IMG/VR virus record: IMGVR_UViG_3300045988_023006
Location: 1-41,499 of that record
Reading direction: 5' to 3' (one strand)
Source of the DNA: a virus
DNA length: 41,499 nt
In this document: positions 20,119 through 21,718 of the stretch, one piece after another
Numbering within the stretch: position 1 is the first letter of the stretch
How the letters are laid out: every line of letters starts with the position of its first letter
Notes under the pieces: generated by a model
What the model was told of the DNA's origin: nothing
Database searches by the model: none
Seen by the model: only the letters and a program-made list of their open reading frames with translations
Translations under genes and position numbers: made by a program

Positions 20119-20583
20119 ATGAGCAAAAAGGCGACACTGCCTTATGATGTGCGGTTGGAGTGCATTGCTTATGTGCGTGGATATCCGCGCCGGGTGCGGG
20201 CGTATCGAGAGGCCCGGGCGGAGATACTGGGCGGGACGCATAGCGACGCAGAGGGCATGCCAAGAGGACAAGGCATCGGCAGACCCGCCGAGAGCAAGGC
20301 GGAGCAGCTGGCCGCCATAGAGAACTGGCCGGAAACCAAGAAAATGCGGGCGGTGGAATATGCCATAGACCGCTGCGGGCTGGATTTGGAGAGCGAGAGC
20401 GTCCGCAAGCAGCTTACACAGGGGATCATGCGCAACTGTCAGGGCAAGCACAAGTATTCCCGCAACAAGATCATTGTACCGGGGATCAGCGAGAGAACAT
20501 TCAGCAGGAGGAAAGAACAGTTTTTGCACGACATCGCCATATATTGCGGATTTGCTGAAAAAGTTGGCACAAATTCCACTTAA
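20119..20583 (+). CDS. ArpU/RinA-like late-gene transcriptional activator
   Basis: 154 aa. Last gene before the packaging module. C-terminal HTH-like ..ISERTFSRRKEQFLHDIAIYCG... Motif- and position-based call. Confidence 0.5.
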   Translation: MSKKATLPYDVRLECIAYVRGYPRRVRAYREARAEILGGTHSDAEGMPRGQGIGRPAESKAEQLAAIENWPETKKMRAVEYAIDRCGLDLESESVRKQLTQGIMRNCQGKHKYSRNKIIVPGISERTFSRRKEQFLHDIAIYCGFAEKVGTNST

Positions 20584-20588
20584 TGATG

Positions 20589-20597
20589 TGCTACAAT
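20589..20597 (+). promoter_or_regulatory. Extended -10 element TGCTACAAT (candidate late promoter)
   Basis: TGnTAnAAT-type sequence 6 nt after the activator stop. No good -35, as expected for an activator-dependent or extended -10 promoter. Confidence 0.4.
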
Positions 20598-20860
20598 AGG
20601 TACAGTGGATGATAGGACATGGTCATTCACGCGATTTCCCAATCATCACTTTTCCTCCCTTCTGTGCGCCGCCGGTATCGGGCGCACCTTACGGCACCGA
20701 AAGGTCATACCGGCACAAACAGCCTGTAGGGAAACCTATGGGCTGTTGTTATATGCCGTGCGCTCGTTGCACCCCGCGATCCGGGGCGGGAGGTCGCACC
20801 TCCCACACGGCACCAACAGGACCCCTCGCACCTCTCAACGATGTGACCCAGAGGGGACAT
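20598..20860 (+). ncRNA. Highly structured non-coding leader / candidate cis-regulatory RNA with a tRNA-like acceptor/T-arm minihelix
   Basis: Contains several strong helices, including a 13-bp GAAA-capped hairpin (20718-47). The element at 20755-20815 ends in an unpaired A plus CCA. ACGGCACC motifs recur. An anti-SD CCCCTC (20822-27) faces GAGGGG (20851-56). The overlapping ORF translation is P/C/R-rich junk. Confidence 0.5.
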
Positions 20861-21718
20861 ATGCGGTATAGGTGCCCCGTAAGGGGAGACCTCAGCACGT
20901 CAGTGGTAGAGGACAACTACGATCCTGTTTTACCGGCAGAGCCGAAGAGCAAACTGGGCGATGTGTACCAGCTTGGAGACCATCGCCTTATGTGCGGAGA
21001 TAGCACGTCTTTGGCAGACGTACAGAAGCTCTTGGGGGGGGCACAAATGGATTTGCTGCTCACAGACCCCCCGTACAATGTGGACTATCAGGGCACCGCC
21101 GGGAAGATTAAGAACGACAATATGGAGGATACGGCCTTCAGGCGTTTCCTGACGGATGCTTTCTCCAATGCGGCGATGGTCATGAAGCCCGGTGCTCCGT
21201 TCTACATCTGGCATGCAGACAGCGAGGGGTATAACTTCCGAGGCGCGTGCAGAGATGCGATGCTGCGTGTCCGGCAGTGCCTGATCTGGGTGAAAAACTC
21301 CCTTGTTATGGGGAGACAGGATTTCCAGTGGAAACATGAGCCTTGCCTGTATGGTGAGAGCGAGATTGAAGAGGAAGCGCATGAACCTTGTCTATACGGA
21401 TGGACGGAAGGCAAGAAGCACTATTTCTTCAAGAACCGCAGGCAGACAACTGTGCTGAATTTCGATAAGCCTGTCAAGTCTGCGGAGCATCCGACCATGA
21501 AGCCGATTAAGCTGTTTGATTACCAGATGCAGTGCTCCAGTAAGCCGGGTGAGAATGTTCTCGACCTGTTCGCTGGATCTGGAACAACGATCATGGCAGC
21601 GGAGCAGAATGGCAGACACGCTTTCTGCATGGAGTATGACCCGAAGTATGCCGATGTCATTATTGATCGATGGGAAAAGTTTACCGGAGAAAAGGCGGTA
21701 CTTCTGCATGACGATTGA
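20861..21718 (+). CDS. DNA methyltransferase, N6_N4_Mtase family
   Basis: About 285 aa from ATG 20861 (the start is uncertain; GTG 20903 is an alternative). ..GDVYQLGDHRLMCGDST.., LLTDPPYNV, ..EHPTMKPIKLF.., LDLFAGSGTT. Confidence 0.8.
   Translation: MRYRCPVRGDLSTSVVEDNYDPVLPAEPKSKLGDVYQLGDHRLMCGDSTSLADVQKLLGGAQMDLLLTDPPYNVDYQGTAGKIKNDNMEDTAFRRFLTDAFSNAAMVMKPGAPFYIWHADSEGYNFRGACRDAMLRVRQCLIWVKNSLVMGRQDFQWKHEPCLYGESEIEEEAHEPCLYGWTEGKKHYFFKNRRQTTVLNFDKPVKSAEHPTMKPIKLFDYQMQCSSKPGENVLDLFAGSGTTIMAAEQNGRHAFCMEYDPKYADVIIDRWEKFTGEKAVLLHDD

Follow-up and report, generated by a model that had tools for sequence, protein, structure and literature searches.

What does a long stretch of structured and apparently non-coding sequence do at the head of a phage packaging region? 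The question is raised by positions 20584-21718 of the viral record IMGVR_UViG_3300045988_023006, whose 41,499 nt are referred to below as the window. An earlier note on this DNA had offered two readings of the part of the stretch that precedes a DNA methylase gene: a cis-acting switch or processing element that gates the methylase, terminase and head genes, or a stand-alone non-coding RNA. The second option holds up, but the proposed gating is contradicted by the variable cargo found behind the same leader in other phages, by a terminator at the end of this cargo in a relative called L099, and by a deletion. (L-numbers such as L001 and L099 denote the relative loci or contigs, viral or bacterial, that were used for comparison.) The segment from 20589 to 20896 forms the head of a phage operon of non-coding RNAs and did not evolve as a leader for late genes. 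Four parts follow one another in this operon: an extended -10 promoter, a leader of ~150 nt, a 58-nt cloverleaf and a 47-nt hairpin.

The last of these parts provides a likely answer to the question. The hairpin is an orphan member of the family of RNA hairpins that act as antitoxins to the abortive-infection toxin AbiF, and comparison with its relatives suggests that the phage probably carries its own antidote against AbiF defence rather than a late-gene switch. We propose, with a probability of roughly 0.55, that the phage hairpin is an antitoxin mimic directed against host AbiF and that it is released by tRNA-processing enzymes. The structural and identity statements that concern the hairpin and the cloverleaf are made with high confidence.

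An orphan member of the AbiF antitoxin-hairpin family

The hairpin occupies 20815-20861 on the plus strand, like all features of the window described here, and was identified through the Rfam abiF motif (RF03085), a covariance model of our own (R1) and covariation. It is built from a 6-bp outer stem (20822-27 paired with 20851-56), a 1-nt 5' bulge, an inner stem (20829-31 with 20843-45), the 11-nt loop CUCUCAACGAU, a 3' bulge ACCCA and a tail ACAUAU. Rfam searched at gathering threshold gives no match anywhere in the window. The covariance search that the earlier note had recommended was also run permissively on the 701 nt from 20400 to 21100, and it places RF03085 at 20822-20857 with 27.1 bits (E = 0.014). 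This match takes in every one of the 37 model positions, and the 13-nt core CCUCUCAACGAUG is identical in both. The inner stem of the hairpin, CAC/GUG, departs from the AGC/GCU of the Rfam consensus by two compensatory pair changes. The assertion that the region matches no known class was thus mistaken, the 3' hairpin being an abiF-motif RNA. The note had correctly seen that CCCCTC at 20822-27 can pair with GAGGGG at 20851-56 ahead of the ATG at 20861, but the stem so formed is the hairpin's own covarying outer stem and not a device for hiding a Shine-Dalgarno (SD) sequence.

Model R1 was built only from 18 bacterial hairpins that adjoin AbiF genes, in a single register of the 3' arm, and it finds 20815-20861 at 69.9 bits (E about 1e-18, its E-values being rough) as the sole match in 41.5 kb. 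Across 60 distinct hairpins, all six pairs of the outer stem show compensatory changes and 99.1% of alignment cells are paired; none of 500 shuffles was as good, and no slid register came close. Most hairpins were ascertained by the exact 14-mer ACCTCTCAACGATG, and the independently ascertained set comprises 17 hairpins, seven of them distinct.

The same 14-mer reveals the company that this hairpin keeps elsewhere. A scan of viral contigs returned 120 loci, ~85 of which have the same hairpin on different but complementary outer stems. Three viral loci (L052, L102 and L119) present a sigma-70-type promoter, the hairpin, a U-run and then an Abi_2 ORF (open reading frame); the Pfam Abi_2 family (PF07751) is matched at E = 6e-57 in L052 and at E = 6e-48 in L102, and L119 is 96% identical to L052. 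The corresponding bacterial scan, with one genome per species, yielded 103 true hairpins, and an AbiF ORF starts about 46-100 nt downstream of the start of ACCTCTCAACGATG in 55 of them. AbiF-linked copies almost always have TTGACA-17-TATAAT ending ~7 nt before AACAGGAC, together with a U-run past the stem. In many gut Bacillota, Abi_2 genes are immediately preceded by hairpins of the subfamily with inner stem CAC/GUG and bulge NCCCA. For ~45 bacterial hairpins (L227, L237, L238, L246, L257, L270 and others), no downstream AbiF was detected with two queries. At least 12 of these keep the promoter and the U-run; they could be orphan antitoxins, loci with a divergent toxin, or cuts at a locus end.

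The window itself encodes no AbiF that could be detected by tblastn at E < 1e-3 or, at E <= 10, by a 36-sequence AbiF profile run against all six-frame ORFs, and it is for this reason that we call its hairpin an orphan. Any linkage to AbiF in cis is missing, as the hairpin has no promoter of its own, no U-run terminator and no abiF gene. It is flanked instead by the CCA of a cloverleaf upstream and by a cut unit and the methylase gene downstream.

Both the abiF motif and its role as an antitoxin are already known. AbiF is a HEPN RNase, proposed to be the ancestor of Cas13, that is bound and inhibited by its non-coding RNA AbiFr (PMC12737573). RCd22, an RNA with abiF motifs, neutralizes AbiF in cis and in trans through direct binding, and mutations that break its stems abolish neutralization whereas compensatory ones do not (PMC12373285). 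AbiFr and RCd22 are antitoxins of AbiF/Abi_2 HEPN toxins in type III-like toxin-antitoxin or abortive-infection systems. The window hairpin is like them, and like RF03085, in its 6-bp outer stem, 1-nt 5' bulge, 3-bp inner stem, 11-nt loop and 5-6-nt 3' bulge. It differs in being an orphan that lies between tRNA-like units of a phage RNA array with no promoter or U-run of its own, and in having a single motif where RCd22 has two; the RF03085 gathering score is not reached by the window copy or, it seems, by its whole subfamily. Brief mention has been made of a cyanophage with an orphan abiF RNA (PMC9964418). Within the literature, which we covered incompletely, we found no report of this subfamily, of orphan hairpins in phage tRNA or tRNA-like arrays, or of delivery by processing. 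A possible older precedent is work attributed to Rince and colleagues (2000, FEMS Microbiol Lett 182:185), in which a DNA region of the lactococcal phage sk1 reportedly protected phage 712 from AbiF.

A cloverleaf unit, a variable array and a deletion scar

Directly upstream of the hairpin lies a tRNA-like unit of 58 nt, element iv (20755-20815). The segments described in the earlier note (GCCGTG/CACGGC, CCCCG..CGGGG, GGGAG-GTCGCAC-CTCCC and A-CCA) are all present, and the comparison drawn there with a tRNA bearing a discriminator A and CCA was apt. The unit is a cloverleaf that includes a D-like stem, where the note had seen no D arm. Its parts are a 6-bp acceptor-like stem, a 2-3-bp D-like arm, a 4-5-bp anticodon-like arm and a 5-bp T-like arm with the loop GUCGCAC, followed by the discriminator A (20812) and an encoded CCA (20813-15). 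Relatives gathered with a pattern anchored on the T arm were aligned as 33 distinct sequences in five variants (alignment A4). Compensatory changes are seen in 10 of the 18 pairs, 96.3% of cells are paired, and none of 500 shuffles did as well. RNAalifold independently predicts the cloverleaf, and it is also the minimum-free-energy (MFE) fold of the window's element iv, with an ensemble frequency of 0.70.

Element iv resembles a tRNA in the cloverleaf order of its four helices, in its closing acceptor-like stem, its discriminator A and the CCA that is encoded here, and in taking up a tRNA's slot in the array. It departs from tRNA in its acceptor of 6 rather than 7 bp, its D-like stem of only 2-3 bp with the loop UCGUU, its T-like loop GUCGCAC in place of UUCRANY, and its 5-nt anticodon-like loop (CGAUC here; ACGAUCA, without U33, in relatives). 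None of the canonical loop features, namely a UUCRANY T-loop, G18G19 in the D-loop and a 7-nt anticodon loop with U33, is found in it. ARAGORN calls no genes over the whole window, element iv included, and the tRNA model RF00005 has no match at E <= 10 in 20400-21100. Because element iv sits as a unit in arrays of tRNAs and tRNA-like units, it is nevertheless reasonable to suppose that RNase P, RNase Z or a CCA-adding enzyme may act on it. A near-identical 12-mer, TCGCACCTC(C/T)CA, occurs both in the T-like arm (20793-20804) and in the abiF hairpin (20826-20837). In L001-type arrays this repeat is an identical 11-mer, and it is not kept in three other element iv variants.

In relatives, the same leader precedes differing cargo past the sequence UUGUUAUAU that follows its last helix: tRNAs, tRNA-like units, element iv, the abiF hairpin and other cloverleaf units ending in N-CCA. 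The cargo units start with G after an AUAU-type spacer. A set of 110 distinct arrays divides into 21 with element iv and the hairpin, 46 with element iv alone and 43 with neither. In other phage groups, a tRNA called by ARAGORN starts exactly 7 nt past the hairpin stem in 16 loci and a few nucleotides further on in three more, and in L037 and L058 the hairpin comes immediately after the 3' end of a true tRNA. Seven tRNA-like cargo units whose anticodon arm is replaced or missing clear the Rfam tRNA gathering score, with 45-57 bits. The array ends in a terminator wherever this was examined; that of L099 stops at a strong terminator-like hairpin, after which ~230 nt separate it from a full ParB-methylase gene.

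The cargo itself is varied in ways that deserve mention. Units in L134 (589-646) and also in L124, L125, L126, L136 and L195 have normal acceptor, D and T arms, with the anticodon arm replaced by unrelated inserts or missing, and the form lacking this arm is a 58-nt unit. Some tRNAs next to the hairpin are atypical as well, such as the 82-nt tRNA-Gly(CCC) directly after it in L001 (MT835513.1, 3109-3190), which is enlarged around the anticodon stem and the variable region, or the tRNA with a 4-base anticodon call in L091. A conserved stretch, GAGGCCGGGTAGCACCCGGACACTGTGAGACCGTTCGTCGTGGCTCACATGGAAATGACAATG, lies ~90-200 nt past the first cargo unit in many of the arrays in L124-L217. Rfam reports an SpF41 small RNA on the minus strand of L146 (189-295; 53.3 bits against a gathering score of 52) and, below the threshold of 39.8, a gut-2 RNA on the plus strand of L072 (11033-11079; 30.4 bits). 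An acceptor-closure heuristic for tRNA-like units after the hairpin also fired on AbiF-linked controls, at ~0.5 false hits per sequence, and its counts were discarded.

How, then, did an RNA array come to abut a methylase gene? Judged by sequence comparison, their contact in the window is the scar of a microhomology-mediated deletion, a secondary accident. Alignment with L016, L078, L022 and L099 identifies 20863-20896 as the remnant of a second cloverleaf unit, comprising the 5' acceptor strand and a D-like arm with CCCC-GUAA-GGGG. The intact unit in relatives is 92 nt long, ends in AUGCCGC-A-CCA and folds as a cloverleaf with z = -3.75. A CRISPR-DR36 match at 20875-87 (14.7 bits, E = 1.9) was set aside, as it corresponds to the CCCC-GUAA-GGGG hairpin of this cut unit. 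When the window is compared with L099 and L185, BLAST returns two blocks that have 9 nt in common (GACCTCAGC, 20888-20896) and leave ~690 nt of the relative unaligned (3402-4097 in L099), so that the junction carries the 9-nt microhomology GACCUCAGC at 20888-20896. What the window lost in this way is the 3' two-thirds of the 92-nt cloverleaf unit, the terminator, the intergenic leader of the methylase gene and the ParB-like N-domain. Searching with the exact methylase protein recovered the same junction on four assembled contigs, among them L390, whose identity is 100% over 6.9 kb. An exact 28-mer across the junction has no occurrence in the viral and metagenome collections. In L099 (3790-3865, minus strand of the locus), L022 and L030, a conserved block, GTGTAGCCCATGTTTGAGAG...GGGTAAAGACTGTTACTGTAGCCAAGGGGTGGGGGCTGG, immediately precedes the full-length ParB-methylase gene; it may be another structured leader, and it is lost in the window.

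The ORF at 20861-21718 (285 aa) encodes an N-terminally truncated N6/N4 DNA methylase (Pfam N6_N4_Mtase, 1.9e-23; PHROG 498, 1.2e-113). Public assemblies call the gene at 20861, its relatives carry the ParB N-domain, and similarity to methylases begins only near 20888-20900, much as had been noticed before. The first nine codons and the SD (GAGG, 20851-54) lie inside RNA units. The 3' arm of the hairpin doubles as the methylase SD because the ~690-nt deletion fused the array to a methylase gene without its ParB portion. Sequestration of the SD by the hairpin stem is therefore a by-product of the deletion, and translation of the methylase in this lineage is probably affected by the hairpin.

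Promoter, leader and upstream gene

The upstream ORF (20119-20583) ends with a TAA stop codon at 20581-83, and the extended -10-like promoter box TGCTACAAT lies 6 nt past it at 20589-20597; both had been correctly placed in the earlier note. TGnTAnAAT is retained in all 24 distinct upstream variants (TGCTACAAT in 21, TGGTAAAAT in two and TGCTAAAAT in one), and transcription is likely to start near 20602-20605. The box, which comes without a -35 match, was not listed by a two-hexamer promoter scan. A sigma-54-like reading of TGGCAC-N5-TTCCA upstream of the box was rejected by eye for its wrong spacing. As for the product of the upstream ORF, the label of an ArpU-like late activator found no backing: no ArpU/RinA or other family was matched in Pfam (E <= 10), PHROGs, NCBIfam or PDB sequences, and all homologues are without an assigned name. 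The best PDB fold matches of its AlphaFold2 model (predicted local distance difference test score, pLDDT, 76.9) are mostly sigma factors, insignificant at E >= 0.5, and viral fold matches carry the label "transcriptional activator/regulator", likewise insignificant at E 0.03-0.07. We take this as a weak fold hint that the protein is possibly sigma-like or a transcription regulator.

The whole 317-nt region downstream of this ORF folds better than shuffled sequences (z = -3.5), and the fold z-score is the same on both strands. An RNA from the minus strand was ruled out by the G.U pairs, the orientation of the abiF motif and the adjoining tRNAs, all of which fit the plus strand. The region is thus a structured non-coding RNA of the plus strand, as the earlier note had it.

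Two pattern scans found the leader (20605-20750) in more than 100 gut-phage viral contigs, downstream of the conserved extended -10 box; it has no Rfam match. Its pairings were tested in 80 distinct leader sequences, which fall into three forms. A first hairpin, i' (20605-20630), joins GTGGATGA (20605-12) to TCATTCAC (20623-30). This pairing is held in all three leader forms despite unrelated loops, with G-C to G.U variation, and it is also contained in the MFE fold. The helix i proposed earlier, between 20605-13 and 20641-49, is broken in 32 of the 80 variants, the conserved partner of 20605-12 being 20623-30. The alignment also shows a pyrimidine-rich tract, CACUUUUCCUCCCUUCU (20647-20663), with a CCUCC core in all leader forms; this core resembles an anti-SD sequence and could pair with ribosome-binding sites if the leader were freed as a small RNA.

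Helix ii (20665-20686) is a 6-bp pairing of TGCGCC with GGCGCA that is almost invariant and hence without a covariation signal. The longer version in the earlier note (GTGCGCC 20664-70 with GGCGCAC 20681-87) is present in the window, but its outermost G-C is an A.C mismatch in 76 of the 80 variants. The loop of this helix, GCCGGUA (20671-77), is complementary to UACCGGC (20708-14). Of the 12 variant cells in this pairing, ten retain a standard pair as a G.U or U.G wobble, and the other two (G.A, A.C) disrupt it. The pattern points to either a pseudoknot or an alternative helix. In helix iii (20718-20747), 13 bp are capped by a GNRA loop, and UUGUUAUAU comes next; the earlier description of this helix with a GAAA loop was accurate. 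Variation in the helix is confined to U.G to U-A or C-G, G.U to G-C or A-U, and a single double change from U-A to C-G, and two of its G.U pairs are compatible with the plus strand only. The tetraloops found are GAAA, GGAA, GAGA and GUGA, and a divergent form of the helix (L358, L368, L376, L378) has a GUUAU or GGUAU pentaloop. The sequence GUAGGGAAACCU in helix iii resembles what we take to be the helix-45 region of 16S rRNA.

Proposed release of the hairpin and competing explanations

According to our proposal, the tRNA-maturation machinery would cut the primary transcript of the array. The 5' end of the hairpin would be set by 3' processing of the cloverleaf, either by RNase Z cutting past the discriminator or by trimming to the encoded CCA, and in relatives with an intact array, where a whole tRNA or tRNA-like unit follows, RNase P would set its 3' end by cutting at the G+1 of that unit. 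At AbiF loci, the promoter is predicted to put the 5' end of the native RNA at (A)ACAGGAC and the U-run to put its 3' end a few nucleotides past GACAU. The phage arrays enclose these nucleotides between the upstream discriminator or CCA and the G+1 of the next unit. Given these matching boundaries, processing would yield almost the same small RNA, with ends that nearly coincide with those of the AbiF antitoxin RNA defined by its own promoter and terminator. Once released, the hairpin would act in trans as an antitoxin mimic and hold host AbiF inactive during infection or induction. This role appears the most plausible one because the phage has no toxin of its own.

Antitoxin mimicry by phages has parallels. 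Blower and colleagues reportedly showed in 2012 that a pseudo-ToxI RNA of phage PhiTE counters ToxIN. Orphan DarG-like antitoxins have been described in T4-like phages (PMC11825919). These mimics are likewise phage-borne copies of an antitoxin without its toxin, and ToxI is an RNA supplied in trans. Pseudo-ToxI, however, consists of tandem 36-nt pseudoknot repeats that arose by expansion in escape mutants, whereas we infer the function of a single hairpin set in a tRNA-like array. Parallels also exist for the suggested mode of release. The species 1 and 2 RNAs of T4 are small stable RNAs that share a transcript with the tRNA cluster of the phage and mature through RNase P, and the tRNA-miRNA units of MHV68, like mascRNA, release small RNAs through linkage to a tRNA. 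All of these resemble the window in having non-tRNA or tRNA-like RNAs among tRNA genes, with ends that tRNA-processing enzymes would set at N-CCA acceptor structures. The window differs from them in that processing is predicted from its sequence, its 58-nt cloverleaf has a non-canonical T-like loop, and its released cargo would be a defence antitoxin motif.

Other explanations of the locus must be weighed against this one. It is barely credible that ORF 20609-21718 represents a real N-terminal extension of the methylase, even though the frame is open from 20609 in the window and most of the closely related leader variants contain no stops. There is no family match before about residue 148, where the methylase Pfam domain starts. 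The leader variants are set apart by indels whose lengths are not divisible by three, and the sequence that the variants share is therefore read in different frames. Substitutions follow base-pairing rather than codons, and the region is as non-coding as the earlier note had claimed. In relatives, moreover, tRNAs or terminators come after the same sequence, and gene callers put the start at 20861. A cis-acting leader or switch, in which alternative folds within 20600-20860 together with SD sequestration control the methylase, packaging and head genes, is an unlikely solution as well. In its favor, no plus-strand terminator-like site separates the promoter box from terS in the window, the ATG at 20861 that gene callers use follows 6 nt after the GAGG in the 3' arm of the hairpin, and helix iii followed by UUGUUAUAU looks weakly attenuator-like. 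A long structured 5' region upstream of packaging genes also recalls the riboswitch or attenuator leaders of late operons. The methylase linkage, however, is the product of a lineage-specific ~690-nt deletion, and relatives interpose a terminator-like hairpin and a separate leader before the full ParB-methylase gene. The same leader and hairpin precede varying cargo, be it tRNAs, tRNA-like units or AbiF genes, and unlike such late-operon leaders, the window shows no conserved gene linkage, no conserved alternative pairing and no Rfam leader match. The mutually exclusive folds around GCCGTG that had been suggested fail in this respect, with ACGGCACC at 20691 in only six of the 80 variants and helix i broken in 32.

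The hairpin and cloverleaf could alternatively be punctuation or stability elements of tRNA-array transcripts, or the hairpin might recruit host AbiF as a processing nuclease. AbiF has been reported to process its own non-coding RNA (PMC12737573), and the way in which the hairpin abuts upstream tRNA or tRNA-like 3' ends and keeps a fixed 6-nt spacing to the +1 of the next tRNA would suit such a task. We nevertheless find a role confined to RNA metabolism rather unlikely. The loop, bulge and architecture of the hairpin are the same in tRNA-free copies whose only conserved neighbor is an Abi_2 gene, and 89 of the 110 arrays lack the hairpin, so array processing does not need it. Decay is a further possibility. 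The window does contain one clear relic, the cut unit at 20863-20896, and cargo units in relatives lack anticodon arms, so one might regard element iv as a tRNA pseudogene and the hairpin as the leftover of an AbiF cassette minus its toxin, neither of them functional now. Yet compensatory changes preserve all four stems of element iv and the stem of the hairpin, and the hairpin is present in many distinct phage contigs, precisely and repeatedly spaced between units and without the promoter and U-run of an AbiF cassette, all of which makes this view improbable.

The antitoxin mimic thus remains our preferred reading, and a number of points count against it. It is drawn from comparison of sequences and structures, and it assumes that the host of this phage has AbiF. 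It leaves the ~150-nt leader unexplained, and the hairpin occurs in only 21 of the 110 arrays that share this leader. The 27.1 bits of the window hairpin lie below the RF03085 gathering score of 37. A genuine AbiF-adjacent copy of the same subfamily, L102, also reaches only 27.8 bits on this model, however (47.5-kb search at E <= 1, in which L052 and L119 were not listed), and the low score therefore belongs to the subfamily. Ascertainment by an exact word makes the conservation of the loop partly a matter of construction. With regard to the proposed processing, the cloverleaf is not recognized as a tRNA, and its non-canonical T-like loop GUCGCAC makes recognition by RNase P, RNase Z or a CCA enzyme uncertain. 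Nor do relatives preserve the encoded CCA, having CAA, CCU or nothing in its place. Finally, the downstream unit is cut in the window, so RNase P could not free the 3' end of the hairpin there, and the window's own copy would stay on the methylase mRNA.

Whatever the fate of this proposal, the locus has consequences for annotation. The apparent leader of the methylase gene in the window is a deletion scar and not regulatory design, and the Rfam abiF model appears to miss a large subfamily of hairpins. Behind the shared promoter lies an under-described RNA cargo locus that contains tRNA-like units, some of them without an anticodon arm. One attractive if tentative possibility, which we regard as doubtful in its full extent, is that gut phages of this group maintain, where their packaging region begins, a hypervariable array of counter-defence RNAs. 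A single promoter and leader would serve interchangeable small RNAs that are delivered by tRNA-shaped scaffolds and punctuated by RNase P and RNase Z. Such an array would include the AbiF antitoxin mimic as well as tRNA-like units with altered or missing anticodon arms, which may act as decoys or cleavage-resistant substitutes against HEPN or anticodon nucleases. The collateral targets of Cas13 are tRNA anticodon loops. AbiF/Abi_2 is a widespread abortive-infection toxin, and its RNA antitoxin was characterized only in 2025. If the antitoxin-mimic reading is true, the orphan hairpins slotted between tRNA-like units would represent a natural form of RNA counter-defence comparable to pseudo-ToxI.

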